Shown here in pieces: positions 12,468-63,258 of a stretch of DNA of 64,000 nucleotides. The translations under genes and the position numbers were made by a program. Position 1 is the first letter of the stretch. Each line of letters begins with the position of its first letter. The DNA comes from an uncultured bacterium. Its GTDB lineage: Bacteria > Krumholzibacteriota > Krumholzibacteriia > JAJRXK01. The stretch lies in assembly GCA_964601275.1 (NCBI GenBank), contig CAZRMV010000001.1, positions 205,290-269,289 of the forward strand, in the 5' to 3' direction. The notes under the pieces are model-generated. The model searched no databases. It was not told the origin of the DNA and was given only the letters and a program-made list of their open reading frames with translations.

Positions 12468-14663
12468 TCAGGGCGCGATGAGGATCGTCGAGCGGGTCCG
12501 CCGAACCCCTTCCGCATCGGCCACCAGCCAATAGACCCCGGAAGCCACCCGTTGCCCCCGATCGTCCCGCCCGTCCCAGTGGAGGAAATGGGAACCGGCG
12601 GGATAGAGGGCCGGCGGGTCGCTGCGGACCACCCGGCCCCGCGCGTCGAACCATCGCAATCGCACGGTCATCTCGTGGGAAAGATCGAGGATCATCCGAA
12701 CCTCTCCCGGCGCGGAGCGCGCGGGCCGTAGGTGGAAGGTGCTGGCACCTGGAGCCGGCGCATCGACCGCGATGGACGTGATCTCGAACCAGCGGTTCGT
12801 CTCCTGGCTCCATGAACTGTCCCCGTCGGCTTCCTGGGCTCCGACCTTCCACCAATAGCGCTGACCCGGAGTCAGATCGTCCACCACCAGGAAGGTGTCG
12901 GCCCCGGTGGCGAAACTCGCCGGACTGGTGAACTGGGCGTCGGCGGAGAGCTCCACGGTGTAGCTGATCTGCTCCTGGTCGGGGTCGAAGGCGCCTTGCC
13001 ACAAAAAGCGCAGGCCCGACGAGCCGATCAGCCGGCCCTGTTCCGGGTACAGGGGAATGGGTGGAGTCGGCGGGTCGTCCACCGCGTTCTCCCATGCCCG
13101 GGCATTGCCCAGCAGGATCTTCCTCGCGGCGAGGCTGTCGGCCGCGCTGGAATAGAAGCGATAGCGCAAGCTGTTGCGCCAGACCTCGCGCAGCCCGTCG
13201 GCGTGGACGCGCGCCCGGTCCAGGGGAACGACCGCCGGCGTGGCGGTATCGACCCAGATGGGCGAGCTGATCAGGTAGAGGCTGTCCGACGGGGCGAACC
13301 AGGTGCCCCCGACGGCCACCGCTTCCACCAGCAGGGCTTCCGTTCGGGGCAGGTCGATGGGGCCGTCGTAGAAGAACTCGTGCTGCTGGCCCGCGGGCAC
13401 CGGCAGGTCTTCACGCCGTCCACCAGAACCGAGGAGGGTGACCCGCGTCAGGGGAGTCCAACTCACCAGGTGCAACTGCAGACGAGCCGACCCGCCCGTC
13501 GGTTGCAGGGTTTCGCCCAGACGGGCTCCATCGAGACGGCAGTCGAGCAACAGGGGGCCGCTGGTGGCGTAGCAGTGCTTGGCCCGGACCGCGTCGCGCC
13601 ACTGCACATCGAGCTTGGGGCGGGTGGGGGCCGCCGGCCGCTCGATCCAGGCGTAGGTGCGCAGCGATCCCAGCGGTCGGAGATCGTGCCGGTTCATGAC
13701 CCCGTCGGTTTCCCCCACGCTGGCCCACCGGGCTCCGATGGCCAGACCATCCAGCAGGGGCTGGGGATTCCAGCGCCGATCCCACCGATTGCTGCCGCTT
13801 CCGGTAGCGACCGCGTGCAGGGTTCCGGATCGGGCGAGCGAGGGAAGTTCCCGGGCGATCCCGGTTTCCGGCCAGCTCCTGGCCGCGGCGATCACGCCTC
13901 CCGGATCGGGATGGGCCTGGTAGACCAAGGGAGGTCGAGCATCCTGCAGGATCTTCTGCAACATGGGCCAGGCGGGAAAACCCAGTCCGTTGGCCCAGGG
14001 ATTCCCGTCGACCGTGACCAGGGTCTTGGCCCCGAGGATCACCAGGTGTCCCCACCAGCCGCTGCGGAACTCCTCCCCCCACACGACCAGCACGTCCTTC
14101 TGCGGCATGTCGACCACCCCGCTCGGCGTGTCGGCCCGGTTCTCCAGAAGGTACACGAGGTCGAGATCCTCGGCCCTCCCGGCCCGTGCGGCCACACTCG
14201 TGAGCAGAGGATAGCGGTCGGGGAGTCCCCGTTCTCCCTGGTGGGTCAGGTGGACGTGGGGATCGGCGCCGATCCAACCCCAGTCGCGGGGAACGATCCA
14301 TCTCTCCACGTACACCGTGGTCTCATCGCCGGCGTCGGAGACGCTGACCGGGTACTCCCCGGGGATGATCGTAGGACCGCCGGCGACGCGGAGGGTGTAG
14401 TTGCCGGGAGGCAGCTCGAGATCGACCTGGTCTTCGGCGTAGAAATAGGGGTGGAAGGCGTCGTCCCGGTGCGTGCGCAGGGTGGAATCGGGTTGGGAGA
14501 ACAGGTATCCCTGGTCAGAGAGGACCATGAGTCGGGCGGCGGCGGGGGCGCCGGTCTGTCCGTCACGGAGAAAGACCCTCAGGGGCGCCGCCCCGGCCGG
14601 GATCGGCAGCACCGCGGCAAGCAGGAGGAGCCCGCGGAGGAGTGGATGTCGCTTCGGTTGCAT
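12468..14663 (-). CDS. Secreted PHP-domain (CehA/McbA-like) metallohydrolase with an FN3-like region and a C-terminal T9SS type-A / FlgD-Ig-like sorting domain
   Basis: Signal peptide MQPKRHPLLRGLLLLAAVLPIPAGAA. WGWIGADPHVHLTH PHP-like metal site. C-terminus ...HFLHWDGRDDRGQRVASGVYWLVADAEGVRRTRSTILIAP. Confidence 0.75.
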   Translation of the reverse strand: MQPKRHPLLRGLLLLAAVLPIPAGAAPLRVFLRDGQTGAPAAARLMVLSDQGYLFSQPDSTLRTHRDDAFHPYFYAEDQVDLELPPGNYTLRVAGGPTIIPGEYPVSVSDAGDETTVYVERWIVPRDWGWIGADPHVHLTHQGERGLPDRYPLLTSVAARAGRAEDLDLVYLLENRADTPSGVVDMPQKDVLVVWGEEFRSGWWGHLVILGAKTLVTVDGNPWANGLGFPAWPMLQKILQDARPPLVYQAHPDPGGVIAAARSWPETGIARELPSLARSGTLHAVATGSGSNRWDRRWNPQPLLDGLAIGARWASVGETDGVMNRHDLRPLGSLRTYAWIERPAAPTRPKLDVQWRDAVRAKHCYATSGPLLLDCRLDGARLGETLQPTGGSARLQLHLVSWTPLTRVTLLGSGGRREDLPVPAGQQHEFFYDGPIDLPRTEALLVEAVAVGGTWFAPSDSLYLISSPIWVDTATPAVVPLDRARVHADGLREVWRNSLRYRFYSSAADSLAARKILLGNARAWENAVDDPPTPPIPLYPEQGRLIGSSGLRFLWQGAFDPDQEQISYTVELSADAQFTSPASFATGADTFLVVDDLTPGQRYWWKVGAQEADGDSSWSQETNRWFEITSIAVDAPAPGASTFHLRPARSAPGEVRMILDLSHEMTVRLRWFDARGRVVRSDPPALYPAGSHFLHWDGRDDRGQRVASGVYWLVADAEGVRRTRSTILIAP

Positions 14664-17588: not shown

Positions 17589-17860
17589 GCTGGACCAGTA
17601 GGCGGAAGGTTGGCCCCGGGACGGCGGTGGACCCGCCGTCCTGGTCATTGCACCACCTCGCGGCAGCCAACGCAAGGAGCGCTTCAGCCATCCCGCCGAG
17701 CTTCCGGCGGACGTCCCGAGGCTCCTCCTTGCCATATCGCGGGATCGAGGCCACGATGGGGTCCATCGTCTCCACCGCGCCCGGCCTTCTGGACAAGGTG
17801 CCGGTACCCGACGGGAGCGGAGTGTTCTGGACTTCTGACTTCCACGCCGTGAGGCCCTCG

Positions 17861-21701: not shown

Positions 21702-22226
21702 CTATCGCGAAACACCCAGCCCGAGCAACCCGATGACTCCGTGTCCGACATCTTCGCCGCGGGTGGAGACATTGAACTCGGCGCCCAGGCCCACGGAGAG
21801 TTCCCAGCGCCAGGCTCCGCCGCCGGTTTGCCACCGATAGCCGCCGGTCGCGGTCGGCTGGAACACGGTGACCTCGGTGGTACCGCTCCGCTGGGGGTCT
21901 TCCCAGTCGATGGACAGGAACCAGAGGTCGGCTCGAAGTCCTACGATCCAAGCCTTCTCGCGCATTCCCAGCCGATGGATCCATCCTCCGCCGAAGCCGA
22001 ATCCGTTGCCCTGCTCGTTGTCGTGCTCGCCCCAATCATGGCGGTCGGTGAAATTCATGCCGGCGCAAAGGAGAACGATATCGGGTTCCGACAACGGGAC
22101 GTCCACGCGGACGGCTGGAATCAGACCCGCCGGGTAGGCTCGCAGATCGACCCCCCAGCGGACGCTTTCCGCACGGACGGCCTGGACCCCGGTCGAGGCC
22201 AAGAGGAACAGGACGACGCCCCGCAT
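21702..22226 (-). CDS. Hypothetical secreted protein (possible small beta-barrel)
   Basis: ATG 22226 gives the signal peptide MRGVVLFLLASTGVQAVRA. Alternating-hydrophobic, W/G-rich C-terminal half. Confidence 0.5.
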   Translation of the reverse strand: MRGVVLFLLASTGVQAVRAESVRWGVDLRAYPAGLIPAVRVDVPLSEPDIVLLCAGMNFTDRHDWGEHDNEQGNGFGFGGGWIHRLGMREKAWIVGLRADLWFLSIDWEDPQRSGTTEVTVFQPTATGGYRWQTGGGAWRWELSVGLGAEFNVSTRGEDVGHGVIGLLGLGVSR

Positions 22227-43717: not shown

Positions 43718-43831
43718 CGAGGGCTCCCTGGCTGGAAGTGGGGACGGCGCGCCGCCGCAGTCTATCACGGCCCGGCGGCGGACCGTCAACGGGAGAGGTC
43801 GAATCGGTCGACGGGAGAAGACGGCGGCGGG

Positions 43832-46800: not shown

Positions 46801-46933
46801 TGCGGAAACGGTCGGTCACGATCTGGTAGATGGTGATGTCGCGCCAGGAGGCGGGTGAGGGAGTTCCGGCGAGGGCGGGCGATGTCCAGGTGAGGATCGC
46901 GCCCAGCGCGAGTGCGGTGTGCCGGAGGGTCAT
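43832..46933 (-). CDS. Secreted alpha-amylase-family (GH13) enzyme with a long beta-propeller-like extension and a C-terminal T9SS type-A sorting domain (1033 aa)
   Basis: Signal peptide MTLRHTALALGAILTWTSPALAG. GH13 motifs DVVANHMG, GFRIDTVKHV, EVFDGD, FFDNHD. C-terminus ...NPFNPRVVLDYRVPDAGTVSLSILDPAGRVVVHLLDANQAAGEHQVVWNGRDGRGRPLASGVYFARLRAGDRVETRKLTMVR. Confidence 0.85.
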   Translation of the reverse strand: MTLRHTALALGAILTWTSPALAGTPSPASWRDITIYQIVTDRFRNGDPSNDNLGGSYDPADGSRTHGGDFQGLQEKLDYIEGLGVDAVWISPVVLNTHGEYHGYAARDLFTISPQMGGLSALQTFVQAAHARGLYVILDVVANHMGDLIGSTDPAYPAYDPSGSYQLGWWNNGDRYPPPFDDLSWYHSFGEIQDFTDPEQIRGELFGLDDLKTELPAVRDILVDAYSQLIRQTDCDGFRIDTVKHVELDFWQDFAPRIRAAAAAEGKDNFLLMGEVFDGDPAKVGIYTGTQGGGAYALNSVTWFPMAFAARWVFSGQGAPAILSWVMGDSNSYDPSVRWQLGNFFDNHDMGRLAAQGLARQDDTLLRQALTWLLTWPGMPIVYYGTEQEYDGGGDPWNREDLWDGQWDFGPSQGDGFNMATPLYALIRRLQDLRHELAALRRGGLQVLSADADDAGTLVYLRTHPQHFTWDVLVAMNTSWQDTTVTVTARWPVGAVVYDRLQTRQSVTVQAGGQITLRLPSRSAYLFTLDPAATTPRVVNVDPHHDGWIQDPNQPIEVHFDRPMLASSSAWFSFTPPVPFHLSWRNGDTAVLTLTTPWPDGGTWQLTVDAGLPAQDGSATPVPFKSVFHSALGNAGLTLPPGFAVRVRAPFNLHHPLGVEILPADPWGPSPRMDRLLVGDVTRRRILEVDANQRVSSGAVRPEFLDVVLSIDQDTTGKLGGDLFVSTPLNLLRRDGDGVWSVLFPSPTHCEAVVTGTGALAGWAYLSSPEGGGIYRIAGDGSGSLWATGMTNPRGMAPAPAGHPWAGQLIVCDPDLQGGSTGRVFRVDAAGKVSIWVDDPLVSGAIDVAFAPRGAFGEGVAYLADAVNERILVVQPDGSVSVFAEGFENLYGSDVLAFGSDGSLYILDPGGAESITNPGSNAPPRIVRIVGTTATASPAIRRGPLLLRAHPNPFNPRVVLDYRVPDAGTVSLSILDPAGRVVVHLLDANQAAGEHQVVWNGRDGRGRPLASGVYFARLRAGDRVETRKLTMVR

Positions 46934-51788: not shown

Positions 51789-53930
51789 ATGAACCGTGTC
51801 CTGCATCGCCGCCGGGCGGAGATCCTCCTCTTCTTCGCGTTCCTGGGGGGGATTCTCCTTCTTGCCACCGGATCCCGTGCCCGGCTCGACACCCCGCACT
51901 CCCCGGTTCCCCGGTCACCTTCGTCGGACGGATCCGCGGCCCCAGGACACACGAGGGGAAATCCCCCCCCACAAGACCCCTGGGAGATCGACATCACCCC
52001 CGGTCTCTCGCGCGAGGTCATCTTCACCAACAAGAAGGCCACCCACTACGCCTGCGACACCTCCGCCCGGGAGATGCGCGCCTACGCCGGCCTGTACACC
52101 AGCATGCACGAGAGCCTGGATGATTTCGTGTGGGCGATCGACGGCCGGGTCCTGGAGCCGGCCGAAGCACTGCGGGTTCGGGTGTGGCCCTGGCTCCTGC
52201 GGCGGGAATACGAGGGGGAATGGGCCGAGGAGGTCTTCCTGCCCCTGGACGAGCCGGTGCTGTTGGTGCGGCTGGAAGGTCCCGGCGGCAAGCGGTGGAT
52301 GTTCACCCCGCGGGTCGATCTGCGCTTCATCTGGGAGACGCCGACTCCCGCCTACGAGACTCGGGAGCTCGACGGTGTACTGTGTATCCGGAGGAAGGGA
52401 TGGCAACCGGGCGCCGGCGCCTACGCCTGGCTCGCGGTCGCGACGAATCCTCCCGGCAGTTTCTTCGGGAACCCGAAGCAGTGGACCTTCACCCACCCCC
52501 GGGATGCCGCGCGCCGCGCAATGGGGCGGACCCACCCCTTCGACCCGGGGGAGATCGCGGGAAAGTGGCCCAAGGACCGAAACGCGGTCGACGTGGCGGT
52601 CGCCCAGGGGGCCTCGGCCGAGGACGCGGCGGAGCTGGCCCGTCGAGCGCTCCAGGAACGAAGAGCCTGGCTGAAGCAGCGGCGCGCCCACGTGGAAGGG
52701 CTTCTGCGGGCCGCCTCGGTGGACCTGGGACGGGAGGAGTGGAACCGCGCCTATCGCTGGGCCCGCGCGAGCATGGACGAGCTGATCATGGACGCGCGGG
52801 GCGAGGGCATCTACGCCGGCTTCCACTGGTTTCCCAACTACTGGGGACGTGACACCTTCATCTGCCTGCCCGGCGCGGCGCTCGACCTCGGCCGGCTCGA
52901 CGCCGCGCGGAGCATCCTGCGCTCCTTCCTGCGCTTCCAACGCACCGACCGCAACGATCCCTTCCTGGGCCGTCTTCCGAACATCGTCAACCCCGGTGCG
53001 TTGCAGTACCAGGGGGTGGACGGCACCTGGTGGCAGGTGCGCGCCAGCTACCGCTACATCCGGGCTCGGCGGGCCCGGGGCGACGCCGATGAAGAGTACG
53101 AACGCGAGTTCGCCGCCGCGCTCTCCTTGATGATCGACGGAGCCGAGCGCAAGGCGGTCGACGAGTACGGCCTGCTGTGCCACGGGGATGGGGAGACCTG
53201 GATGGACGCGGGAGGCTCGGCGCATCCTTTTTCCCCCCGGGGAAACCGGGCGGTGGAAGTCCAGGCGCTTTACTACAACGCCCTGCGGGTGGCCCAGTGG
53301 CTGGCCGGCGAGCAGGGCCGCAGCGAGGAGGCCACCGGGTACGCGACCCTGGCCAGCCGCACCGCCGGCAACTTCCGTGCCCTGTTCTGGAGTTCCCGAC
53401 GGCAGCAGCTCGCCGACCATCTCAACCCCGATGGCAGCGGCGATTTCCAGATCCGCCCCAACACCATCCTGGCGGTCTTCGCCGTGGAGGACGAATGGCC
53501 TCCGCTGCTCACCCGCGGTCAGCTGGAAAGCGTGGTGAACCGCGCCTGGGAGAGGCTGGTGTTGCCCTACGGGGTGACCAGTCTCGACCCCCACGACCCG
53601 CAGTTCAAACCGCGGCACCTCGATCTCGACCACTACCCCTTCGACGCCGCCTACCACAACGGGGACGTGTGGTACTGGCTGAGCGGACCGATGATCCACG
53701 CCCTGTGCAAGGTCGGGCGGGTCGATGATGCCTTGACCCTCGTGCAGCCCCTGGTGGACGAGATGCTCTACCACGGGGCGGTCGGCGCGATCCGGGAGAT
53801 CCGCGACGGCGGGGACACCGGCACGACCGAGGAGTTCGGGGGTGCGACCTTCCAGGCGTGGTCGATGGCCGAGTTCCTCCGGGCCGTCCACGAGGATCTC
53901 GCCCCGGCCCTGGGCTGGCCGGTGCGCTGA
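51789..53930 (+). CDS. Amylo-alpha-1,6-glucosidase (glycogen-debranching-enzyme C-terminal-domain family) with an N-terminal TM anchor
   Basis: First in-frame ATG after the previous gene's stop. N-terminal hydrophobic AEILLFFAFLGGILLLA. (alpha/alpha)6-barrel GDE-type motifs (GFHWFPNYWGRDTFI, WMDAGG, NGDVWYW). Confidence 0.8.
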   Translation: MNRVLHRRRAEILLFFAFLGGILLLATGSRARLDTPHSPVPRSPSSDGSAAPGHTRGNPPPQDPWEIDITPGLSREVIFTNKKATHYACDTSAREMRAYAGLYTSMHESLDDFVWAIDGRVLEPAEALRVRVWPWLLRREYEGEWAEEVFLPLDEPVLLVRLEGPGGKRWMFTPRVDLRFIWETPTPAYETRELDGVLCIRRKGWQPGAGAYAWLAVATNPPGSFFGNPKQWTFTHPRDAARRAMGRTHPFDPGEIAGKWPKDRNAVDVAVAQGASAEDAAELARRALQERRAWLKQRRAHVEGLLRAASVDLGREEWNRAYRWARASMDELIMDARGEGIYAGFHWFPNYWGRDTFICLPGAALDLGRLDAARSILRSFLRFQRTDRNDPFLGRLPNIVNPGALQYQGVDGTWWQVRASYRYIRARRARGDADEEYEREFAAALSLMIDGAERKAVDEYGLLCHGDGETWMDAGGSAHPFSPRGNRAVEVQALYYNALRVAQWLAGEQGRSEEATGYATLASRTAGNFRALFWSSRRQQLADHLNPDGSGDFQIRPNTILAVFAVEDEWPPLLTRGQLESVVNRAWERLVLPYGVTSLDPHDPQFKPRHLDLDHYPFDAAYHNGDVWYWLSGPMIHALCKVGRVDDALTLVQPLVDEMLYHGAVGAIREIRDGGDTGTTEEFGGATFQAWSMAEFLRAVHEDLAPALGWPVR

Positions 53931-54168: not shown

Positions 54169-57100
54169 ATGATGCCCCCCCGTATGAATCGACCGGCCCT
54201 GGCCGCCATCCTCCTGCTGGGCCTCGCACTGCTCTGCGCGTCGACCTGCTGGGCTACTCCGGTGACCTTCCGTTTCGAGAGTTCCGCCCAGCGGGTGTTC
54301 CTGGCGGGTGAGTTCAACAACTGGTCGGACAGTGCACAACCGATGACCCAGGGAGAGGACGGCATCTGGAGTGTCACCCTCGACCTCGCGCCGGGAGACT
54401 ACCAGTACAAGTACGTGGCCGACGGTACCTGGATCACCGACCCCCACAGCGTCGACACCACCGACGACGGGTTCGGCGGGAAGAACAGCATCGTCCACGT
54501 GGGCAAGGACGCCATGACCGTCGGGGTGGGCGCTGCGGCGGGAACGGCCGGCGCGAAAGCCGCCGCCGAGGGGGCGGAAGCCGTGGGTGGCGGAAAGAAT
54601 GCCCAGGGGAACGCCGGGGTCCAGGCCAAGGCCGGCCAGCGCCTGGTGCATTTTGGGATCTCCGCCCCCGGTGCAGGCAGCGTCTACCTGGCCGGTGAAT
54701 TCAACGGCTGGAACGCCAGCGGCGAGAAAATGGAGGACCCCGACGGGGACGGGGTGTTCGAAGTGACCCTTCCGTTGAAGCCGGGGCGCTACCAGTACAA
54801 GTACGTGATCGACGGCACCTGGAAGGAGGATCCGGCCAGCGCCGAGTACGCCGATGACGGTTTCGGAGGCAAGAACAGCGTGGTCGCCGTCGTGGCGGGC
54901 GACGGCGTGCAGGAGGCCGCCGCCGGTAGCGGCGGGGCGGGGCCTGGGGGCGGAGCACAGGGAGCGGCCGGCACCGAGGGGGCGTCTGGAGCTTCGGGAA
55001 CCACTGGAGGGGAGGCGGTGCACGGCACCTTCAGTGTCACCTTCAGCTACCAGCCGGTGATCTCCGGGGTGGGCTCGGTGATGCTCGCGGGGACCTTCAA
55101 CGACTGGAACGTGGGCGCCACTCCCATGACCGACCCCGATGGGGATGGGACCTACACCGCCACCCTGCTGTTGCCGGCGGGCGAATACCAGTACAAGTTC
55201 GTGGTCGACGGCAACTGGATCACCGACGAGAAGGCCACCGCCTTCGCCGATGATGGCTTCGGGGGCAAGAACAGTGTCATCACCGTCGATGCCAGCTACG
55301 AGAAGATGGACCTGGAGGTCGGCGACGGCAGAATCTACCTGAAGGGACTGGAGGTCGTTCTCGACTATCCCACCGTCAACGCGGTCGACGAAGGGCAGCT
55401 CCTGCTACGGGCGAAGGCCTACCGCGACGATATCCAGGAACTGCGGCTGCACTACCGGGTGGGCGATGGAGAGCCCCAGACGGTGCCGATGCTGGCGGCG
55501 GAGAAGGATCCGGTCTTCGTGACCTACCGCCGGCCGCTCGAGTTCACCGGCGACGGTGATCTGCGCTTCACCTTCGAGTACCGCGACGCAAACACGCATC
55601 GCTTTGCCACCGCGTCGGGAGACTTCACGGAGACCCTTCCTCCGACCGACCAGTGGGTCCTCTACAACGAGAAGATCCTTCCTCCGTTCCGCATTCCGAT
55701 GTGGGCCCAGCAGGGCATCTACTACCAGATCTTCCCCGATCGTTTCCTCAACGGTGACCAGAGCAACGACCAGGACTTCCAGGAGCCCTACTACCAGGGC
55801 CGCAACGAACTGCCCGCGTCGGGCAAGACCAATGGCGAGTATTTCCATTTTGTCGAGGACTGGGACGATGTTTCCGGTCTGGTGAAGAGCCCCTATCGCA
55901 CCGACGGCAAGCCCGACTACTTCAGTTTCTACGGTGGGGATATCGAGGGCGTGCGCCAGAAGATCCCCTACCTGAGGGATCTGGGGATCACCATCATCTA
56001 CTTCAACCCGGTCACCGATGCTCGAAGCAACCATCGCTACGACCCCTGTGACTATCTCAAGCTCGACCCGCACCTGGGCACCGAGGACCAGTTCAAGGCC
56101 TTCACCGAAGAGTGCGCGGAGAACGGCATCCGGGTGATCATCGATATGGCCTTCAACCATACCGGCGACTGTCATTTCGCGTTCCAGGACGCGCTGAAGA
56201 AGTGGAAGGAGAGCAAGTACTTCAACTGGTACGAGTGGAAGAAGCGTCCACCCAGCTATCCCCTGCCGCCGGGCGAGAAAGCCATCGACTACTACGACTG
56301 CTGGTGGGGCTTCGGGTTGCACCCGAATCTCAACTACGACCTCAGCCGGCCCAATGCCCAGGAGAACGGGATCAAGGACACCAAGGATGCCGATCCGAAC
56401 TGGGACGTGGTCAACTACGTCCTGAAGGTTCCGGCGTACTGGATGGGAGAGTTGGGGGTTTCCGGTTTCCGCCTGGATGTTCCCAATGAAGTGCCGTTCT
56501 GGTTCTGGAGACTCTTCCGGGAGAAATGCCGCGAGGTGAAGCCCGACCACGTGCTCATCGGCGAGATCTGGGGCGATGCCCGCCAGTGGATCGGACCGGA
56601 GGTCTTCGATGCGGTGATGAACTACCGTTATTTCAAGGATCCGGTGGTGAAGTGGATCGGTCAGAAGAAGGGCAACAGCGCCACCTTCGACCAGGAACTC
56701 GCCGGAGGACGCACCCGGTACCCCCTGCAGGCAGTGCGGGCCCAGATGAATCTCATCGACAGCCACGACACCCGCCGCTTCTTGAGGGTCGCCGGGGAAG
56801 ACGCCCGCCGGCTGCGGCTGGCCGCGACCTTTGCCATGACCTACGTGGGAGCCCCCCATATCTACTACGGCGATGAACTGGCCCTGACCGGAGGCAAGGA
56901 CCCGGATTGCCGCCGAACGATGCCCTGGTCGACGATGGACGCGCCGGCCCGCCAGGAGACCTTGCGGCATTACCAGGAGTTGACCCGCCTGCGCCGCGAG
57001 CACGACGCGCTCAGCCTGGGTGATTTCATTCCCGTGCTCACCCAGGGGCAGGTGTACGCCTATCTGCGGGTCGAGGGCGATGACAAGGTGCTGGTGGTGT

Positions 57101-57273
57101 TGAACAACGGGGAGGCTCCGGCCTCGGTGGTGGTTCCGGTGGGCAACGCCCGGATTCCCGACGGAACCTCGATCGAATTCCTCCTTGGAGAGGGCGAGGC
57201 GACCACGGTGACCCGAGGGGCGGTGAAGCTGCAGGTGCCCGGGGTGGACGCGGTGATCGTCGCCTTGCGGTGA
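54169..57273 (+). CDS. Secreted GH13 alpha-glucanase (neopullulanase/cyclomaltodextrinase-like catalytic domain) preceded by three tandem CBM48/AMPK-beta-type glycogen-binding modules
   Basis: AGGAG SD. Signal peptide MMPPRMNRPALAAILLLGLALLCASTCWA. Three repeats of F...AGEFN.W.....PMT...DG.....L.L.PG.YQYKYV.DG.W..DP......DDGFGGKNS. GH13 motifs IDMAFNHTGD, GFRLDVPNEV, GEIWGD, IDSHDTRR. Confidence 0.9.
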   Translation: MMPPRMNRPALAAILLLGLALLCASTCWATPVTFRFESSAQRVFLAGEFNNWSDSAQPMTQGEDGIWSVTLDLAPGDYQYKYVADGTWITDPHSVDTTDDGFGGKNSIVHVGKDAMTVGVGAAAGTAGAKAAAEGAEAVGGGKNAQGNAGVQAKAGQRLVHFGISAPGAGSVYLAGEFNGWNASGEKMEDPDGDGVFEVTLPLKPGRYQYKYVIDGTWKEDPASAEYADDGFGGKNSVVAVVAGDGVQEAAAGSGGAGPGGGAQGAAGTEGASGASGTTGGEAVHGTFSVTFSYQPVISGVGSVMLAGTFNDWNVGATPMTDPDGDGTYTATLLLPAGEYQYKFVVDGNWITDEKATAFADDGFGGKNSVITVDASYEKMDLEVGDGRIYLKGLEVVLDYPTVNAVDEGQLLLRAKAYRDDIQELRLHYRVGDGEPQTVPMLAAEKDPVFVTYRRPLEFTGDGDLRFTFEYRDANTHRFATASGDFTETLPPTDQWVLYNEKILPPFRIPMWAQQGIYYQIFPDRFLNGDQSNDQDFQEPYYQGRNELPASGKTNGEYFHFVEDWDDVSGLVKSPYRTDGKPDYFSFYGGDIEGVRQKIPYLRDLGITIIYFNPVTDARSNHRYDPCDYLKLDPHLGTEDQFKAFTEECAENGIRVIIDMAFNHTGDCHFAFQDALKKWKESKYFNWYEWKKRPPSYPLPPGEKAIDYYDCWWGFGLHPNLNYDLSRPNAQENGIKDTKDADPNWDVVNYVLKVPAYWMGELGVSGFRLDVPNEVPFWFWRLFREKCREVKPDHVLIGEIWGDARQWIGPEVFDAVMNYRYFKDPVVKWIGQKKGNSATFDQELAGGRTRYPLQAVRAQMNLIDSHDTRRFLRVAGEDARRLRLAATFAMTYVGAPHIYYGDELALTGGKDPDCRRTMPWSTMDAPARQETLRHYQELTRLRREHDALSLGDFIPVLTQGQVYAYLRVEGDDKVLVVLNNGEAPASVVVPVGNARIPDGTSIEFLLGEGEATTVTRGAVKLQVPGVDAVIVALR
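54259..55287 (+). repeat. Three tandem ~85-aa CBM48-like domain repeats (nt 54259-54498, 54637-54891, 55027-55287) separated by Gly/Ala-rich linkers
   Basis: Protein-level repeat with conserved LAGEFN.W / PG.YQYK(Y/F)V.DG.W / DDGFGGKNS blocks, seen directly in the translation. Confidence 0.7.
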
Positions 57274-57522: not shown

Positions 57523-60500
57523 ATGCGCGTCGTTCCCTCCCGTCGCACCCTGGACGTGCTTCTTTCTCCACCGCCTCCCTCCGGCGCGCTACGTATCGCT
57601 CTCGTTGGCACCCTGGGGTGGCTTCTCGCCCTGGGCATGGCTCCCACTCCGGCCGCCATGGCCACCACCTGGAACACGCCCATCGTCGATGGCCCCATCC
57701 ACGACCTCCCCGATTCCAATGACTGGCAGCCGGACGAGCTCTTCTTCGAGGACCCGGCGGGAGACAGCAACTGGGGACCCTTCAACGACTTGCAGGGACT
57801 GTGGGTCACCTGGGACGAGAACGGTCTGTATGTCGGGGTGAGCGGGCAGCTCTGGGACACCGCCGGTCCGGGCACCGGGGGCAACTCGGTCAACGTCTAC
57901 CTCGATGTCGATTTCGGGCGGGGCACCGGGATCTCCAACATGGACGCGATCGACCCGAACGCCTTGGGCGCGGTCACCCGCAATCTCTGGAGGCCGCTCC
58001 AGGTCGGCGGCGGCTTCGGCGCCGATTTCGGGTTCACCTCGTGGGCGGGCACCTACGATCGGGGGATCCTCGATCTCTTCGATCCGCTTCTGCCGGTGAA
58101 TCTCATCACCGACGAGAGCCGGCAGGTCGGGGTGAATCAGCCCTGTCTCGACCCGACCGGCCCCTGCCAGGGTTTCGACAAGCAGGGAAACTTCTCCTTT
58201 GAATTCTTCATCCCCTGGCACGATCTCTACGCCCGGCTCTATCCGAACCTGACCACGACCGTCCCTCCCGGGGCGGCGATCGCCCTGGTGGTGAACATCG
58301 TCGGCGGCGGTGATTCGATGTCGGAGGAGTCGATTCCCTCGCAATCGACCTTCCGGGTGATCGACCGGCCGGTCACCCTGGTGGTCGACGCCGATGCCGA
58401 CGGGGTGCCCGACCGGGACTGGCCTCCCTCGGGCAGTATCTCGGGAACCGTGAACTTGAGCGATCCGGCGGACACCACCACCGTGGTCGACGTAGTGGCC
58501 TGGCTGCCCGACGGAACCGAAGCCGCGCGCGACCAGACGCCCCCGGGAGGGGGCGCCTACCAGCTGACCCGCCTGGGCGCCGGGGATTATACCGTCGGTA
58601 TCGAGAGCATCTTCTACGTGGCCAATCCGCAGACCGTGCAAGTGGGAGAGAACCAGGATGTCACCGGAATCGACTTCGACGCCTTGCGGGTGCGCAGCGG
58701 GATCGATCTGCGGCTGCGCTACCTGGACGGTCCGGAGAGCAGCTCACGCAGCCTCGATCTGGCGTTCCGGCTGAGCGGGCGCACCGATCTGGGATCGGAT
58801 TTCTCGGTCGATTTCATCATTGGACCGCAGGATTCCCTGGTGGTGGGTCTGCGCCCGGTCCCCGCCGGCGACTATCACCTGAGCGTGGTGCCCCAGTGGC
58901 CCACGTCGCAACCGGTACCCGATCCGCAACGCTCCGGATATACCCGCATCGAACGGGATCTGCGGGTCCCCGACAACGATGGCATCGTCGATCTGGGCAC
59001 CTTGGACCTGAAGGTGGTGCGGCCCACCCAGGTGGCGTTCTTCGCTCCCGACGAGACGGGCGACGGAGAGCGGATCACCGCGGATTTCACTACGGTGAGT
59101 CTCCCCTCGGAGAACTTCTACGCCTACCTGGTGGTGGAGGCCGGGTTCGTCGACGACGAGGGAAACGAAGCGATCTACGGCCTGCCGGGGCTGCAGATCA
59201 CCACCACCACCATGGATCCGGCGTTTGCGACCCAGGGAGTGGTCGAACTGTGGTCGGCGGCGGACACCACCCGCAGCGCCCAGCCGCTGGCCGATCCCTC
59301 GGTGTGGCTACCCCCTTCGGGCGAGCCACCGGTGGGGAGGGCCCGTTTCCTGTTGACCGACGACGCCCAGGAGGTCGTTCGTCTCTTCGCCGCGGGCAGC
59401 GGGATGGACGGCGTCCTCGAGGTGGGGGTCCAGCCCATCGAGCCGGCCGAGATCGCCCTGTCCGCCCAGGGCGATGCGATGGTGGCCGGGGCACAGATCC
59501 CGCTGCAGGGGCGGCTGCTGGACGTGGCCGGCAACCCGGTGTTCCTCAACGAGTTCCTGGTCTTCTTCGATATCACCCCGAATGTTCCGGGGGTGGGTCC
59601 CAGTCTCGCCGTCACCGCGAGCGACGGTTCGTTCGGCACCGATGGCGACGTGGCCTTCACCACCACGGTGAGCGGCGACTACACCGTGCAAGCCAAAGGC
59701 ACCACCGACTCGGGGAAGGATATCGTCTCGCCCCAGCTCGCCTTCCATGTGGCCCCGGATCTCCCCTACCAGCTGGAACTGGTCGCCGAGTTGAAGAAGG
59801 TGGACGGCAGCCCGGTGGGGCTGAGCTATCGCGTCCGGCAGACCGACCGGTTCGAGAATTCCTCGCCGGCCACCGGGGTCACGGTGCAGATCCAGGCCGG
59901 TCCGCCGGAGATCGTGGCCTCGGCTCCGGCCAGCGTCGTCCTGGACGACGCGGACGCGACCGGGACCTTCGATGTGCAACTCGTTCCGGGAAGAACCGGG
60001 GTGGTCGAGTGCACCGTGACCGTGCCGGGTCTCGCCCGGCAAAGCACCACCCTGCGCACCCCGGTGCTTTTCGGCCTGGTGGCCACCGACGAGGTGGCGC
60101 CCGAGAGCGACACGAACCACAACGCGAATCCGGACATCGATCTGACCGCGTTGTACGCGTTCAGCCAGAACGACACCCTCGTGGTGAAGCTTCCATTTCG
60201 CAGCAACTTCAACGGCGCCCACATGGCGCTCCTGTTGGAATCGACGGGAACCCCCGAGGGAGCGGTCGGCGACTATTTCGGCTTTCCCATCTTCTACCTG
60301 CACGACCTGTTGCCCGATTTCGTCTTCACCTACAAGTACGCCGCCGACGATTACGCCGACCTGCGGCGGCCGCCTCCGGGGGGCGATCCCAGCCAATGGC
60401 AGTGGTACGATATGCAGGCTGCCGCCTGGGTCAGCGAATTCAATGACAATGTGAACGCCAAGGCGCAGGGTTGGGTGTCCAAGGACGAGAGCGCGGTCAC

Positions 60501-63258
60501 CTTCCGCATTCCCTTGACGGTGCTCGGTGGGGGTTTCACCGCGGGTCGCGATACCCTCCGGGCGCAGGTGTACGTGATGCAGGAAGACGGGGGCGAGAAG
60601 AGGCCGGCCCTCGATTCGGTGCCCCACGACGCCACCGTGGACATGGTGCCCCCTCCCGGGGCGGGAGAATGGTGGGAAAATCTTCCGCCGCGCGTCGACC
60701 TGAAGAACTGGGCCGTCTTCGTGCCCGAGGTCTTGCCCGGGCTGTTGAGCCTGGAAGATGTCGCGTTCGATCCTCCCGAGGTCACCCAGGGGGAGACCAC
60801 TCTCTTGACCGCGCGTCCGGTGATCGATGTCCAGGCGGTCCCCGATCCCATCTTCCAGGTCTTTGCCGATTTCTCCCGCTTCGGAGGCGACGCGCTCACT
60901 CCCATGGACGACGAGGGCCGAAACGGCGATCTCGTGGCGGGAGACGGCATCTACAGCGTCGAATTGACCATCGATCCTTCCGAACTCGAAGGGGACGCCG
61001 CCATTCTCGTCCAGGCCACCGAACTCAATTCGGGGGAAAGGGCCTCGGCCACCGCCGACCTGGCGATCACCGGGCAGCCCCAACTGCAACCCATCTTGAG
61101 CTTCGACGACCCCGCGGGGGACGATCACGGCCCCAATCATCCAGGGGAGAAATTCCTCTACTACACCTATCCCACCAACGGCGTCTTCTTCCCCGGTGTG
61201 TTCGACCTGTTGGGCATGCAGGTCTTCGATGCGGGCGAGAAGCTGGTGTTCCGGGTCGATGTGGGCGAAGTCACCGACCCCGCCCAACCCGACGCGGCCA
61301 ACTGGAATGCGCCGTTCCCGACCGACCAGTTGTGTCCCGAGGGTTCCCGCATCGACCTGAACCTGCAGAACGTGGTGGTTCTCATCGACAACATTCCCGG
61401 GAAGGGTTCGATCAAGCTGCCCGACAACCGTTGGGCCGATGTCGCCCGGCAGGACGCCTGGGATTACGCGGTGATCGCCGACGGCTGGTGGAAGGGGATG
61501 GTGCGCAGCAACGGATCGTCGTCTTCGGGAAGTTGGGACATCTTCCGCAACGACGAGGACTATTTCTTCTGTGTCAACGCCATCGACAACACCATCGACA
61601 TGTTCGTGGACAAGAAGGTCCTCGAAGTGGGAGGGCTGAGCGGAGCGGAACTGCAAGAGGTGATCGACCAATGGGACTTCATCGTCCTGATGAGCGGGCA
61701 CGATGGCGATTCCAACGACAACAACTGGGGAGGGATCCGTTGGGTCAACGAGGGCCGGCCGCAGTGGCAGTTCGGCGGGGGCAAGAACGGAGAGTCGGGC
61801 CGGGAGCGTGACGCCAACATCATCGACATCATGACCCACGCGGGGCTCGACCCCACCGGGAAGCCGAAGCCGCCCGGCCGGCCCCAGGAGGAGCAACTCG
61901 ACTTCACCACCCCGGAAGCCGAGCGCCGCTTCTCCGACCCCAAGATCCTGGTATCGGTCGAGTTGGAGGCCGAGGAGCTCATCGACAACGTCCCCCCCCA
62001 GATCACCTTCCTGAACGATCCCGATCGCGCCCTGCGGCAGTGGGCCATCCTCAAGGGAGCGCCGGTCTCTCCCATCGTGCGGATCGAGGACGACAACGAC
62101 GTGGTCTCGGCGAAGATGCGCTGGCGCGGAGTAGGAGAACCCCGGAGCGCGGCCCGCGAAGCGCCGCTCGGCCTCTTGCGCAGCGATCTGGACAGCGATG
62201 GGGTCACCTTCATCGGCGACGTGCCTTTCGAGCAGTTCAGCGACCCTTCGGTGACGAACCTGGTATCCCGGTTGAAGCCGGATGGCACCATCGAGAAGGT
62301 GCGGTACATGATCCTCTCGTTCGAGGCGGTCGACCGGGTTGGGAACGCCACCCCCCAAAGCAGCACCGAATACCTGCTCGAGGTTCCCGAACAGCCGGTC
62401 GAGGAAGTGATCCAGTCGGTGCTTCCCGATTCCCTGGAGGAAGGCGGCACCGATCCGGTGCAATTCGACCTGCCCGAGGGAAGCCGCCTTCGCCTGCCGC
62501 GTGGGTTCGTCGATGATCTCTTCGCGCGCGATGACAGCTCACGGGTGGAATTGCGGTACCGCGCGTTCGCCCTGGAGGATCTCGACCTGGCTCCGCACGG
62601 CGGAAGCAACCCGAGCGTCCTGCTTCCGGAGAACCGCTATCTGCAGGCGGCCCGGTCGTTCCAGCTCTTCTGGGTCCATGGAGACAGCACGGTCGAGGAG
62701 ATCCAACAGCTTCCCGAATCGGCCGAGTTCTCCATCCACTTCCCCCATTTCCTGATCGAAGGGGAAAGCCCGCCCAATCTCCAGTACTTCCACTACAGCG
62801 AAGCGTCGAAACGCTGGGTCCTGGTGGGAGGCCATAGCGAGGTCGAGGGCAGCACCTTGACCGCCGAGGTGGTGGAGACCGGTCTGTATGGGGTCTTCAC
62901 CAAGGGATCGAAGCTCAAGGACGAGACCCTGGTCACCGGTCTGCAGTTGTCGCCGAATCCGTTCTCGCCCAACGGGGATGGAGTGCACGATTTCCTGAAC
63001 ATCAGCTATGTGATTCCCGACCAGATCAACCAGGTCGTGGTCGAGATCTACGACCTGCGGGGTGAGAAGGTTCGCACCCTCCAGCTCTTCGAGGGAATCG
63101 GAGATGTGACGAACCGTACCACCGGCCTGGTGTGGGACGGACGCGATGAGCGGGGCAACTATGTTCCCATGGGTATCTACGTCTGCCGGGTCGAGGTGGA
63201 GGGGAAGTTCCTAAAGCGCTGGGAACGGGCGACCGCGGCGGTGGTGGTGGTACGATGA
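57523..63258 (+). CDS. Giant secreted multidomain protein (1911 aa) with a C-terminal T9SS/FlgD-Ig-like sorting domain; function unknown, possibly a cell-surface carbohydrate-binding or adhesin scaffold
   Basis: ATG 57523 (GAAGGGG SD). Signal peptide MRVVPSRRTLDVLLSPPPPSGALRIALVGTLGWLLALGMAPTPAAMA. A related D-P-A-G-D...GP... module appears twice, near residue 100 and near residue 1230. C-terminus ...NPFSPNGDGVHDFLNISY...GLVWDGRDERGNYVPMGIYVCRVEVEGKFLKRWERATAAVVVVR. Confidence 0.8.
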   Translation: MRVVPSRRTLDVLLSPPPPSGALRIALVGTLGWLLALGMAPTPAAMATTWNTPIVDGPIHDLPDSNDWQPDELFFEDPAGDSNWGPFNDLQGLWVTWDENGLYVGVSGQLWDTAGPGTGGNSVNVYLDVDFGRGTGISNMDAIDPNALGAVTRNLWRPLQVGGGFGADFGFTSWAGTYDRGILDLFDPLLPVNLITDESRQVGVNQPCLDPTGPCQGFDKQGNFSFEFFIPWHDLYARLYPNLTTTVPPGAAIALVVNIVGGGDSMSEESIPSQSTFRVIDRPVTLVVDADADGVPDRDWPPSGSISGTVNLSDPADTTTVVDVVAWLPDGTEAARDQTPPGGGAYQLTRLGAGDYTVGIESIFYVANPQTVQVGENQDVTGIDFDALRVRSGIDLRLRYLDGPESSSRSLDLAFRLSGRTDLGSDFSVDFIIGPQDSLVVGLRPVPAGDYHLSVVPQWPTSQPVPDPQRSGYTRIERDLRVPDNDGIVDLGTLDLKVVRPTQVAFFAPDETGDGERITADFTTVSLPSENFYAYLVVEAGFVDDEGNEAIYGLPGLQITTTTMDPAFATQGVVELWSAADTTRSAQPLADPSVWLPPSGEPPVGRARFLLTDDAQEVVRLFAAGSGMDGVLEVGVQPIEPAEIALSAQGDAMVAGAQIPLQGRLLDVAGNPVFLNEFLVFFDITPNVPGVGPSLAVTASDGSFGTDGDVAFTTTVSGDYTVQAKGTTDSGKDIVSPQLAFHVAPDLPYQLELVAELKKVDGSPVGLSYRVRQTDRFENSSPATGVTVQIQAGPPEIVASAPASVVLDDADATGTFDVQLVPGRTGVVECTVTVPGLARQSTTLRTPVLFGLVATDEVAPESDTNHNANPDIDLTALYAFSQNDTLVVKLPFRSNFNGAHMALLLESTGTPEGAVGDYFGFPIFYLHDLLPDFVFTYKYAADDYADLRRPPPGGDPSQWQWYDMQAAAWVSEFNDNVNAKAQGWVSKDESAVTFRIPLTVLGGGFTAGRDTLRAQVYVMQEDGGEKRPALDSVPHDATVDMVPPPGAGEWWENLPPRVDLKNWAVFVPEVLPGLLSLEDVAFDPPEVTQGETTLLTARPVIDVQAVPDPIFQVFADFSRFGGDALTPMDDEGRNGDLVAGDGIYSVELTIDPSELEGDAAILVQATELNSGERASATADLAITGQPQLQPILSFDDPAGDDHGPNHPGEKFLYYTYPTNGVFFPGVFDLLGMQVFDAGEKLVFRVDVGEVTDPAQPDAANWNAPFPTDQLCPEGSRIDLNLQNVVVLIDNIPGKGSIKLPDNRWADVARQDAWDYAVIADGWWKGMVRSNGSSSSGSWDIFRNDEDYFFCVNAIDNTIDMFVDKKVLEVGGLSGAELQEVIDQWDFIVLMSGHDGDSNDNNWGGIRWVNEGRPQWQFGGGKNGESGRERDANIIDIMTHAGLDPTGKPKPPGRPQEEQLDFTTPEAERRFSDPKILVSVELEAEELIDNVPPQITFLNDPDRALRQWAILKGAPVSPIVRIEDDNDVVSAKMRWRGVGEPRSAAREAPLGLLRSDLDSDGVTFIGDVPFEQFSDPSVTNLVSRLKPDGTIEKVRYMILSFEAVDRVGNATPQSSTEYLLEVPEQPVEEVIQSVLPDSLEEGGTDPVQFDLPEGSRLRLPRGFVDDLFARDDSSRVELRYRAFALEDLDLAPHGGSNPSVLLPENRYLQAARSFQLFWVHGDSTVEEIQQLPESAEFSIHFPHFLIEGESPPNLQYFHYSEASKRWVLVGGHSEVEGSTLTAEVVETGLYGVFTKGSKLKDETLVTGLQLSPNPFSPNGDGVHDFLNISYVIPDQINQVVVEIYDLRGEKVRTLQLFEGIGDVTNRTTGLVWDGRDERGNYVPMGIYVCRVEVEGKFLKRWERATAAVVVVR

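Follow-up and report, generated by a model that had tools for sequence, protein, structure and literature searches.

Six homologous Ig-like C-terminal tails as probable type IX sorting domains in a Krumholzibacteriota-like genome

Six predicted proteins encoded in the window (the whole 64,000-nt stretch of DNA analysed here) end in one homologous C-terminal tail of 85-95 aa, and this observation is confirmed as a real feature of the DNA. We consider it probable that the six tails are Ig-like C-terminal domains (CTDs) that mark proteins for type IX secretion in a Krumholzibacteriota-like host, and the tail most likely sends all six proteins to the cell surface. One conserved alpha-glucan (starch/glycogen-degrading) gene cluster holds three of the six tail proteins.

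Results

Six ORFs of the window carry a homologous C-terminal tail

An earlier note on this DNA had described a shared C-terminal tail in at least five, possibly six, proteins. The tail was borne out in all six ORFs, namely 12468..14663, 29671..32412, 37229..37981, 39951..42407, 43832..46933 and 57523..63258 (hereafter referred to by their first coordinate), and it runs to the stop codon in each of them. For the count, the four clearest tails were made into a profile, and the 625 six-frame ORFs of the window that reach 50 aa or more were all scanned with it. This profile picked up the two weaker tails, those of 37229 (E 2.9e-9) and 29671 (E 1.5e-5), and because the next-best ORF matched only at E 0.94, the number of tail-bearing ORFs in the window was fixed at exactly six. 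Five of the six gene calls are identical to gene products in public collections, and the sixth, the giant 57523, has its public start at 57658.

The leave-one-out analysis indicated that each tail scores 23.3-75.6 bits against the profile of the other five, whereas residue shuffles (500 per tail) averaged about -1 bit and peaked at 4.2-9.1 bits, and the pairwise tail scores also favoured true homology. The sequence entropy of the tails is 3.6-3.9 bits and their G+R content 18-26%. Because of these scores and this composition, the similarity is not confined to low-complexity G/R-rich sequence, which was the doubt that the earlier note had attached to its own observation. The tail paralogues of this genome are no nearer one another than they are to database relatives.

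The consensus that had been proposed for the tail held in part. The motif NPF(N/S)P was found only in 43832 (NPFNP) and 57523 (NPFSP), while 39951 has PNPT at this place and 12468 and 37229 lack the motif; likewise, a V-R terminus is present in 29671, 39951, 43832 and 57523, but 12468 ends in ...ILIAP and 37229 in ...SLRQS. The copy in 37229, already described as degenerate, is indeed broken in the alignment by an insertion of ~27 aa.

The tails belong to the FlgD Ig-like and T9SS CTD family

[quoted passage not shown] Using FlgD_ig (PF13860, cutoff 27 bits), four of the six tails passed, with 37.0 bits for 12468, 48.3 for 39951, 36.6 for 43832 and 31.1 for 57523; 37229 fell below the cutoff at 24.2 bits and 29671 gave no match. 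The T9SS type A model TIGR04183 (cutoff 23 bits) was passed by two, 39951 (41.7-42.6 bits) and 43832 (33.4 bits), while 57523 (20.0 bits) and 29671 (16.5 bits) scored below it and no match to 12468 or 37229 was found at E up to 0.1. Even the best tail stayed under the cutoff of PF18962 (22.5 vs 27 bits), and by sequence the six tails lie closer to FlgD_ig than to PF18962. The interpretation as CTD-dependent secretion was partly supported: the domain family holds, with two tails above the type A cutoff and the other four below it, and the pathway itself is what we infer.

The six-tail profile matched 1241 database proteins, nearly all of which carry PF18962 and PF13860, some of them being named as T9SS type A sorting domain-containing proteins (Calditrichaeota) or after the FlgD Ig-like domain (Candidatus Krumholzibacteria). 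Every one of the 120 best relatives in the database has the end of the domain at most 3 residues from its C-terminus, and 112 of them terminate in K or R. The FlgD_ig / T9SS CTD family comprises ~496,000 cluster representatives, and it also occurs as internal tandem repeats, many proteins having 5-23 copies and a single protein at most 23 matched stretches, so the domain alone is no proof of a sorting role.

Among solved structures, the tail profile matched the CTD of PorU (6za2, residues 1062-1139 of 1156, E 1e-6) and PorZ (5m11, residues 696-741 of 758, E 5e-5), but its best sequence match in the PDB was flagellar FlgD (3osv, E 3e-9), not a T9SS CTD. AlphaFold2 modelled the 39951 tail (pLDDT 90.3) as a compact 7-strand Ig-like sandwich, which Foldseek aligned to the PorU CTD 6za2 at TM 0.64, rmsd 3.4 and 25% identity and also matched to PorZ 5m11. 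Since FlgD, C5a-peptidase Ig domains and T9SS CTDs score alike in this search (E ~3e-4 to 1e-3), the fold cannot separate a T9SS CTD from FlgD.

Tail proteins with diverse bodies

By inspection, signal-like N-termini with a hydrophobic core and an AxA-like site are seen in 12468, 29671, 43832 and 57523; 39951 has a short uncharged core and 37229 a lipobox. The ORF 12468..14663 (- strand) encodes a predicted exported metallohydrolase of the CehA/McbA family (731 aa; NF038032, 89.5 bits vs cutoff 80) with the signal peptide MQPKRHPLLRGLLLLAAVLPIPAGA, an fn3/Ig domain and the C-terminal tail at ~12471-12740, whose ending is atypical. FlgD_ig lies at residues 665-717, the four-tail profile matched ORF residues 648-736, and the leave-one-out score is 48.3 bits. 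The lipoprotein candidate at 37229..37981 (- strand, 250 aa, lipobox LFLGAC) carries its degenerate tail at ~37232-37561, which the tail profile matched in two pieces and which scored 38.3 bits in the leave-one-out analysis.

The 913-aa predicted exported protein at 29671..32412 (+ strand) belongs to a conserved family of unknown function, has no Pfam match and ends in a divergent CTD subtype (~32150-32409, ...GRFVLVR). This tail scored 23.5 bits with the PorZ CTD, and 23.3 bits in the leave-one-out analysis vs a shuffle maximum of 4.2. Its family has 161 homologues, with the tail in 101 of the 120 listed and kept to the last residue, and remote members carry canonical PF13860/PF18962. In the relative L013, the gene after that of a 29671-family member encodes a barrel homologous to the one of the window (see below), and this barrel exceeds the PorV_fam cutoff (170.8 vs 90 bits). 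A PorZ analogue was considered because the tail best fits the PorZ CTD and a homologue adjoins a PorQ-like barrel, and was rejected, since searches with the body, whether its one sequence or a profile of 50 sequences was used, matched neither PorZ nor any PDB or Pfam entry.

The two tails above the type A cutoff terminate predicted exported glycoside hydrolases, both encoded on the - strand. The first (39951..42407, 818 aa) is a GH13 protein with CBM48 (branching/TreZ-like; Alpha-amylase, CBM_48 and Alpha-amylase_C domains) and has its tail at 39954-40223, ending in ...RRLVVVR. The second (43832..46933, 1033 aa) is a GH13 alpha-amylase (Alpha-amylase, 173.5 bits) with the signal peptide MTLRHTALALGAILTWTSPALA, and its tail (43835-44101) starts with HPNPFNP and ends in ...RKLTMVR. 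With two GH13 bodies in the set, the earlier description of the tail-bearing proteins as unrelated was overstated.

A giant tail protein is followed by a PorV-family barrel

The largest tail protein (57523..63258, + strand, 1911 aa) is a predicted surface protein with a Glucodextran_C module (102 bits) and a hybrid type A/type B CTD. Its tail (62986-63255) starts with SPNPFSPNGDGVHD and ends in ...AAVVVVR. The tail passed CHU_C (PF13585, 32.1 bits vs cutoff 27), with NPFSPNGDG as its N-terminal motif, and scored 26.2 bits with the type B model TIGR04131 (cutoff 35), covering only profile positions 4-45 of 85. We prefer the start at 57523 to that at 57658 because the signal peptide then directly precedes the conserved mature N-terminus TTWNTPIVDG / TYNxPTIDG. 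The orthologues in the relatives L004, L005, L007 and L010 retain the tail, and the full giant sequence had no match when searched against PDB sequences.

The ATG of the next gene overlaps the stop codon of the giant gene (ATGA). This gene (63255..64000, + strand, cut by the window end; full length L002:19087-19977) encodes a predicted PorV-family 14-strand outer-membrane barrel of 296 aa, as indicated by sequence and fold. It matched PorV_fam (NF033709) at 63.5 bits (E 2.5e-17, profile positions 4-326 of 326), below the cutoff of 90, and PorP/SprF (TIGR03519) at 13.9 bits vs a cutoff of 90.55. The only PDB sequence match with E <0.1 was PorV 6h3i_F (E 6.7e-5). Its AlphaFold2 model (pLDDT 85.8) has 14 strands, and the top Foldseek matches in the PDB were PorV 6h3i_F (E 2.1e-12, TM 0.67) and 8gl6_F, with TodX and FadL ranking lower. 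The giant-barrel pair is kept in two Krumholzibacteriota MAGs and also in lineages in which the barrel is only ~40-41% identical, and the giants of these lineages retain the NPFSPNGDG...WDGTD tail. Relatives of the barrel have sporadic Pfam matches to Toluene_X, TraF_2 and UPF0164.

Three tail proteins lie in an alpha-glucan utilisation locus

Several genes of the alpha-glucan cluster encode proteins without a tail. A MalK-type ABC ATPase for alpha-glucan uptake (42605..43789, - strand; ABC_tran, OB_MalK, TOBE_2) and a GDE_C amylo-alpha-1,6-glucosidase family protein (51789..53930, + strand, limits from the public call in L002; GDE_C, 230 bits) have none, and the tail-profile search found none in a predicted exported GH13 protein of 1034 aa (54169..57273, + strand) to which Pfam assigns three CBM48/AMPK1_CBM modules and X25 modules. 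The locus also includes two proteins predicted to lie in the outer membrane, one of 507 aa and one of 767 aa with CBM48, as well as MalEFGK, and a SusC/SusD pair is absent from it. A seventh tail protein, just beyond the window, probably belongs to the alpha-glucan locus as well. To call the window a secretome hotspot, as had been done, went too far, for the region is largely one functional operon region, the alpha-glucan utilisation locus with three of the six tails.

Host lineage and secretion machinery

The T9SS occurs in the FCB (Fibrobacterota-Chlorobiota-Bacteroidota) superphylum. The nearest genomes to the window are Candidatus Krumholzibacteriota MAGs, and this lineage is placed within the FCB superphylum (PMC11285876). 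Searches with Pfam and NCBIfam models over the window and ~9 kb downstream (~73 kb of a 535-kb contig) found no core or accessory T9SS genes such as SprA/Sov, PorU or PorK/L/M/N, and the PorV-family barrel is the sole T9SS-like machinery gene in this stretch. T9SS substrates carry both a Sec signal peptide and a CTD, and for those of type B a genetic linkage to the cognate PorP/SprF-like shuttle is frequent (PMC12618676). [quoted passage not shown] A literature search for PF13860 or "FlgD Ig-like" found nothing relevant, and no paper in the library searched connects Krumholzibacteriota to the T9SS, to type IX secretion or to gliding, so the window adds a concrete cargo set together with a PorV-family partner gene.

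Discussion

T9SS translocation, CTD cleavage or attachment and a CTD-barrel interaction are what we infer for the six proteins. An N-terminal signal peptide would take each of them through Sec into the periplasm, with 37229 following its lipoprotein signal, where the folded 7-strand CTD would be recognised at an outer-membrane translocon and then passed to a FadL-like PorV-family shuttle barrel, and the cargo would afterwards be released or anchored at the cell surface. The canonical type A tails of 39951 and 43832 may in this way bring GH13 amylolytic enzymes to the surface. The giant with its hybrid tail appears to have its own translationally coupled PorV-family barrel, and the pair may work like the SprB-SprF and PG1035-PorP cargo-anchor pairs of Bacteroidota. 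The tail proteins, the CBM48-bearing outer-membrane proteins and MalEFGK would together form a conserved locus for alpha-glucan capture and uptake.

A possible reading, to which we give clearly less weight, is that only the tails with a V-R end (29671, 39951, 43832 and 57523) are working signals and that those of 12468 and 37229 have decayed or been repurposed, their proteins being periplasmic or lipid-anchored. Given their atypical C-termini, these two tails may be weak or non-functional as signals: both are without a TIGR04183 match and without the K/R terminus of 112/120 relatives, and 37229 in addition lies below the FlgD_ig cutoff, has its domain split by the ~27-aa insertion and already gains an anchor from its lipobox. 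The tail of 12468, however, is a strong member of the set (FlgD_ig 37 bits, leave-one-out 48.3 bits, full-length profile coverage), and the terminal requirements in a Krumholzibacteriota-like lineage may differ.

It is unlikely, in our judgement, that the tail is a generic FlgD-type Ig module for adhesion, for glycan or envelope binding or as a spacer, on proteins exported by type II secretion, lipoprotein sorting or vesicles with no T9SS involved. Such a module would fit FlgD as the best PDB sequence match, the Foldseek ranking of FlgD and C5a-peptidase Ig domains beside the PorU/PorZ CTDs, and the ~496,000 representatives, many with 5-23 internal copies; yet the domain is strictly terminal in 120/120 closest relatives and has a conserved K/R end, two tails exceed the curated type A cutoff, and the tail is kept across enzyme families that are not otherwise related and, among the 29671 homologues, to the last residue. 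As to the machinery, the visible ~73 kb holds no core T9SS gene and PorV-related FadL-like barrels also occur outside T9SS contexts (the Toluene_X, TraF_2 and UPF0164 matches), but the top sequence and structure match of the barrel here is PorV, the barrel of a relative passes PorV_fam, and the lineage lies inside the FCB superphylum (PMC11285876). That a high-GC genome with G/R/V-rich ends produced the similarity as an artefact of composition has practically no chance of being true, since, for all the ~66% GC of the window and the 18-26% G+R of the tails, it is refuted by the window-wide profile search (no other of the 625 ORFs better than E 0.94) and the shuffle tests (leave-one-out 23-76 bits vs a shuffle maximum of 9.1), and curated models and solved structures match the tails.

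The type IX reading may be carried further, in a form that we regard as decidedly improbable, namely that in Krumholzibacteriota and their neighbours it is PorV-family, not PorP/SprF-family, barrels that act as cargo-dedicated partners of individual CTD proteins. The clearest case would be the hybrid-tailed giant glucan-binding protein in its non-Sus alpha-glucan uptake operon. CTD-barrel pairs could even be self-contained outer-membrane export and anchoring modules that operate without a full Bacteroidota-type T9SS.

For a candidate phylum known from metagenomes only, the tail is a practical marker of surface and secreted proteins, and here it points to a surface-displayed apparatus for starch/glycogen degradation. 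Because the domain is long known and already caught by standard annotation models, its value lies in annotation, not in surprise. The conserved giant-barrel pair offers a testable case of how CTD type and shuttle specificity have evolved outside Bacteroidota.

Comparison with known systems

The tails resemble the T9SS type A CTDs of the P. gingivalis gingipains and the F. johnsoniae glycoside hydrolases in being 80-90 aa at the extreme C-terminus of Sec-exported enzymes, in starting with a PNP motif, and in the 7-strand Ig-like sandwich and the hydrophobic strand with a K/R end. In type A systems the CTD is cleaved by the PorU sortase and the cargo is attached to anionic LPS. The present tails differ in that their host is Krumholzibacteriota-like, not a member of Bacteroidota, that four of the six score below the type A cutoff, and that no core machinery was seen in the ~73 kb around them.

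The giant is comparable to the cargo of type B cargo-barrel pairs (SprB-SprF of F. johnsoniae and PG1035-PorP of P. gingivalis), since it is a very large predicted surface protein with the NPFSPNGDGxxD hallmark, the gene for a 14-strand FadL-family barrel lies directly downstream, and the pairing is conserved across lineages (PMC9143113, PMC12618676). It departs from them in that the second half of its tail is FlgD_ig/type A-like, with TIGR04131 below its cutoff, and in that its barrel scores 63.5 bits as PorV/PorQ but only 13.9 bits as PorP/SprF. The cargo, moreover, binds glucan and belongs to an operon for nutrient uptake, whereas the cargo of the known pairs is a gliding adhesin.

With the Ig domain of the flagellar hook cap FlgD (PF13860; 3osv, 7bhq) the tails share the core motif WDG(K/R)D...G...G.Y and the fold. 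In FlgD, however, a flagellar scaffold exported from the cytoplasm, the domain has an internal position, whereas the tails lie at the very C-terminal end of proteins that have a signal peptide and an enzyme body, and genes for flagella were not found near the tail proteins.

Finally, the alpha-glucan locus parallels the Bacteroidota Sus system with T9SS-secreted amylases, as both combine GH13 enzymes predicted to be surface-exposed with CBM48 modules, outer-membrane proteins and an inner-membrane importer. In place of SusC/SusD, the locus described here has the giant, the PorV-family barrel, the 507-aa and 767-aa predicted outer-membrane proteins and MalEFGK.

Six genes of the window end in one shared C-terminal domain

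The earlier note had proposed that several secreted proteins of the window share a C-terminal sorting domain, and indeed each of the six ORFs it listed closes with a similar stretch of 85-95 aa: 12468..14663(-), encoding a CehA/McbA-family metallohydrolase, 29671..32412(+), 37229..37981(-), encoding a putative lipoprotein, 39951..42407(-), 43832..46933(-) and 57523..63258(+), encoding a 1911-aa Glucodextran_C protein, hereafter the giant (genes are named by their start coordinates). A profile of the four clearest tails, run over the complete set of 625 six-frame ORFs in the window (GC ~66%), recovered its own four members together with the tails of 37229 (E 2.9e-9) and 29671 (E 1.5e-5), and because the next-best ORF reached only E 0.94, the window holds exactly six copies. 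When the six tails are aligned, four columns (W, G, G, Y) are invariant, and tail-versus-tail BLASTP gave at most 74 bits. With a profile built from the remaining five, each tail scored 23.3-75.6 bits, whereas shuffles of its own residues (500 per tail) never exceeded 9.1 bits; with an entropy of 3.6-3.9 bits and a G+R content of 18-26%, the similarity is not confined to low-complexity G/R-rich sequence, the reservation attached to the original claim, and compositional or chance similarity was excluded. The consensus proposed there needs narrowing, as 43832 and 57523 alone contain NPF(N/S)P, and the suggested (V/L)(V/L)R ending holds as a terminal V-R in four tails but not in 12468 and 37229. 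The tail of 37229 also carries a ~27-aa insertion. Nor are the protein bodies all unrelated, since 39951 and 43832 are both GH13 proteins.

Public collections contain products identical to those of five of the six gene calls. For the giant, public calls begin at 57658 (MATTW...), which leaves out its signal peptide. Translation from 57523, or from the GTG at 57556, adds back a hydrophobic signal sequence with the last residues ...PAAMA, just ahead of TTWNTPIVDG, the conserved N-terminus of the mature protein; in orthologues the signal peptide ends ...AGA and is followed by RTYNRPTIDG. On sequence grounds 57523 is the better start, because the signal peptide then sits directly before the N-terminus conserved in orthologues.

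The tails belong to the FlgD_ig/T9SS family

Using the cutoffs of 27 bits for Pfam FlgD_ig (PF13860) and 23 bits for NCBIfam TIGR04183 (type A), the tails of 39951 (48.3 and 41.7 bits, respectively) and 43832 (36.6 and 33.4) passed both models, and those of 12468 (37.0; no TIGR04183 match) and the giant (31.1; TIGR04183 20.0) passed FlgD_ig only. The tail of 37229 scored 24.2 bits with FlgD_ig and had no TIGR04183 match, and that of 29671 had no FlgD_ig match and scored 16.5 bits with TIGR04183. The two-model assignment suggested previously is thus borne out by PF13860 in four of the six tails and by TIGR04183 in two, the others being below cutoff or unmatched. It is possible, if somewhat doubtful, that the tails of 12468 and 37229, the two unmatched by TIGR04183, are weak or non-functional signals; 12468 clearly passes FlgD_ig, and such a loss would be compatible with the export route proposed below. 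The giant's tail opens with the type B hallmark SPNPFSPNGDGVHD and passes the type B model Pfam CHU_C (32.1 bits; cutoff 27) but falls below the cutoff of TIGR04131 (26.2 bits; cutoff 35), which makes it a type A/type B hybrid.

Searched against 5.8 billion proteins, the combined profile of all six tails retrieved 1241, nearly all previously annotated with PF18962 and PF13860, under names including 'T9SS type A sorting domain-containing protein' (Calditrichaeota) and 'FlgD immunoglobulin-like domain containing protein' (Candidatus Krumholzibacteria); the latter label indicates that the domain type was already known in the lineage. The tail domain is long known and detected by standard models, and the tails are a known kind of domain, now in a poorly studied phylum.

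The tail profile matched FlgD (3osv, E 3e-9), the PorU C-terminal domain (CTD; 6za2 residues 1062-1139 of 1156, E 1e-6) and the PorZ CTD (5m11 residues 696-741 of 758, E 5e-5) in the PDB. The AlphaFold2 model of the 39951 tail (90-sequence alignment) is a seven-strand sandwich (pLDDT 90.3), for which Foldseek returned C5a-peptidase Ig domains, FlgD, PorU-CTD and PorZ-CTD together (E ~3e-4 to 1e-3). The predicted fold is compatible with a T9SS CTD but does not distinguish it from FlgD.

Terminal position of the domain and the 29671 family

When 1.84 billion cluster representatives were searched exhaustively with the profile, 496,279 matched at E <=1e-3. The top-ranked relatives are 900-7600 aa long and match in 5-23 stretches each, so the Ig-like module is also used as an internal tandem repeat, presumably in the stalks of adhesins. 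With this number of matches, and with as many as 23 internal copies, the fold family is very large and extends beyond terminal signals. The tail could accordingly be a generic Ig-like surface module on proteins exported by another route, but we consider this unlikely: in each of the 120 closest database relatives the domain stops no more than 3 residues short of the C-terminus, and 112 of these proteins have K or R as their final residue; this position supports a signal role.

The weakest tail, that of 29671, belongs to a widespread, conserved family of ~820-950 aa proteins with acidic DDDGDG repeats, in which no known domain was found. Its orthologues keep their own CTD subtype to the last residue (WNLVSRNGQxVVSGIYLYSVES...GRFVVVR), remoter members carry canonical PF13860/PF18962 tails, and a tail profile built without this family detected 101 of the 120 listed homologues. 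In a relative (L013:6992-15281), the gene after one for a 29671-family CTD protein encodes a barrel that is homologous to the window barrel described below (hhalign probability 98%) and passes the PorV/PorQ model (170.8 bits). This family member lies between a TonB-dependent receptor and that bona fide PorV/PorQ-family barrel, near GWxTD-domain proteins and ExbBD/TonB. Another contig (L014:1575-15582) carries five family paralogues in tandem.

A PorV-like barrel adjoins the giant

Pfam and NCBIfam models detected no SprA/Sov, PorU, PorK/L/M/N or accessory T9SS protein among all called window genes and ~9 kb downstream. The single machinery-like gene starts at 63255(+), its ATG overlapping the TGA of the giant. 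Its product of 296 aa has a signal peptide, and is truncated by the window end and full length in an overlapping public contig (L002). This protein, the barrel, aligned with the whole PorV/PorQ family profile at 63.5 bits (cutoff 90) and belongs to a small, unnamed family of 50 homologues. A 39-sequence profile of this family had one meaningful PDB match, F. johnsoniae PorV (E 6.7e-5), the remaining three all being ribonuclease PH (E >=0.1). Its AlphaFold2 model is a 14-strand barrel (pLDDT 85.8). For this model Foldseek ranked PorV from two T9SS translocon structures, 6h3i and 8gl6, highest (E 2e-12), above TodX and FadL.

The window sequence was traced to a 535-kb contig of metagenome JGI 3300023503, with near-identical copies in other samples. 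The closest GTDB genomes are Candidatus Krumholzibacteriota/Krumholzibacteriia MAGs (70% and 56% identity on the barrel), and a 29671-family homologue is present on the same Krumholzibacteriia MAG. Both MAGs keep the order GH13-CBM48 enzyme, giant, barrel, ~510-aa protein and ~770-aa CBM48 protein. The core order of giant, barrel, ~520-aa protein, CBM48 proteins and MalFGE persists where the barrel is only ~41% identical, and the giants of those lineages end in the same tail type.

Half of the tail genes lie in an alpha-glucan locus

Six of the ~38 window genes carry the tail, and three of them (39951, 43832 and 57523) sit in one alpha-glucan utilisation region with MalK (42605), a GDE_C glucosidase (51789) and a tailless GH13 enzyme with three CBM48 modules (54169). 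Past the window end the region continues with the barrel, a 507-aa protein, 767-aa and 263-aa CBM48 proteins, MalE, MalF and MalG. The other three tail genes lie among housekeeping genes, e.g. HtpG, histidine ammonia-lyase and AdoHcy hydrolase. Much of the clustering behind the term 'secretome hotspot' is thus accounted for by a common function.

The conserved locus spans window 39951-64000 and L006:15598-24203, on a contig extending past the window end, and is devoid of SusC/SusD. Its 507-aa protein ends ...LWF, and the 263-aa protein has a double CBM48. The 767-aa protein has an N-terminal CBM48 and orthologues ending in F, which suggests a starch-binding module fused to an outer-membrane barrel. 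Directly after MalG, an 821-aa protein (L006:24328-25601, ~window 71985 onward, outside the window), read without its C-terminus, has a weak precomputed FlgD_ig match and is probably a seventh tail-bearing neighbour.

Several other window genes were noted. Behind its signal peptide, the 1339-aa protein of 1905-5924(-) has BNR/sortilin-Vps10 repeats and, at its C-terminus, DUF1684; it looks secreted but is tailless, and scored 152 bits with the 'F510_1955 family glycosylhydrolase' model (cutoff 175). The ORFs 14700-17648(-) (982 aa; weak DNRLRE match only) and 27215-29593(-) (792 aa; divergent neighbour of 29671) have coding-type GC3 and no Pfam/NCBIfam family. A putative high-GC3 ORF without a family match, 38978-39874(+), overlaps the 5′ end of the metallophosphatase gene 38122-39072(-) by ~95 nt on the opposite strand. 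The proteins of 21702-22226(-) (174 aa) and 26515-27105(-) (196 aa; last residue F) have signal peptides and glycine/aromatic-rich, barrel-like sequence and may be small outer-membrane barrels; neither matched T9SS accessory models or other families.

Proposed export route and comparison with Bacteroidota

Krumholzibacteriota are members of the FCB superphylum. Bacteroidota are reported to carry T9SS genes, which 'may also be present' in a number of further FCB phyla (PMC11285876); our literature search found no paper pairing Krumholzibacteriota with T9SS. With the tail homology, terminal position, fold, signal-like N-termini, the barrel, the conserved pairing of its gene with that of the giant and the taxonomic placement shown here, the best-supported reading, which we regard as probable, is that the tail-bearing proteins would be exported by Sec, that a T9SS-type outer-membrane pathway using PorV-family shuttles would recognise their folded CTDs, and that the amylolytic enzymes and the giant glucan-binding protein would be displayed at the surface. 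Oligosaccharides would afterwards be taken up via outer-membrane proteins and MalEFGK. For this route we infer that a T9SS carries out translocation, that the CTD is cleaved or attached, and that CTD and barrel make contact.

Of more interest than the domain itself is a by-product, the conserved pair of CTD protein and PorV-family barrel within a non-Sus alpha-glucan locus. In Bacteroidota, CTD proteins of type A are bound by PorV and those of type B by PorP/SprF-like proteins, all of them 14-strand barrels of the FadL family, and a type B cargo gene often lies next to the gene for its cognate barrel (PMC9143113, PMC12618676). The giant-barrel layout is the same as that of these type B cargo-barrel pairs, but the barrel of the window is PorV-like rather than PorP-like, and the tail of the giant is a hybrid.
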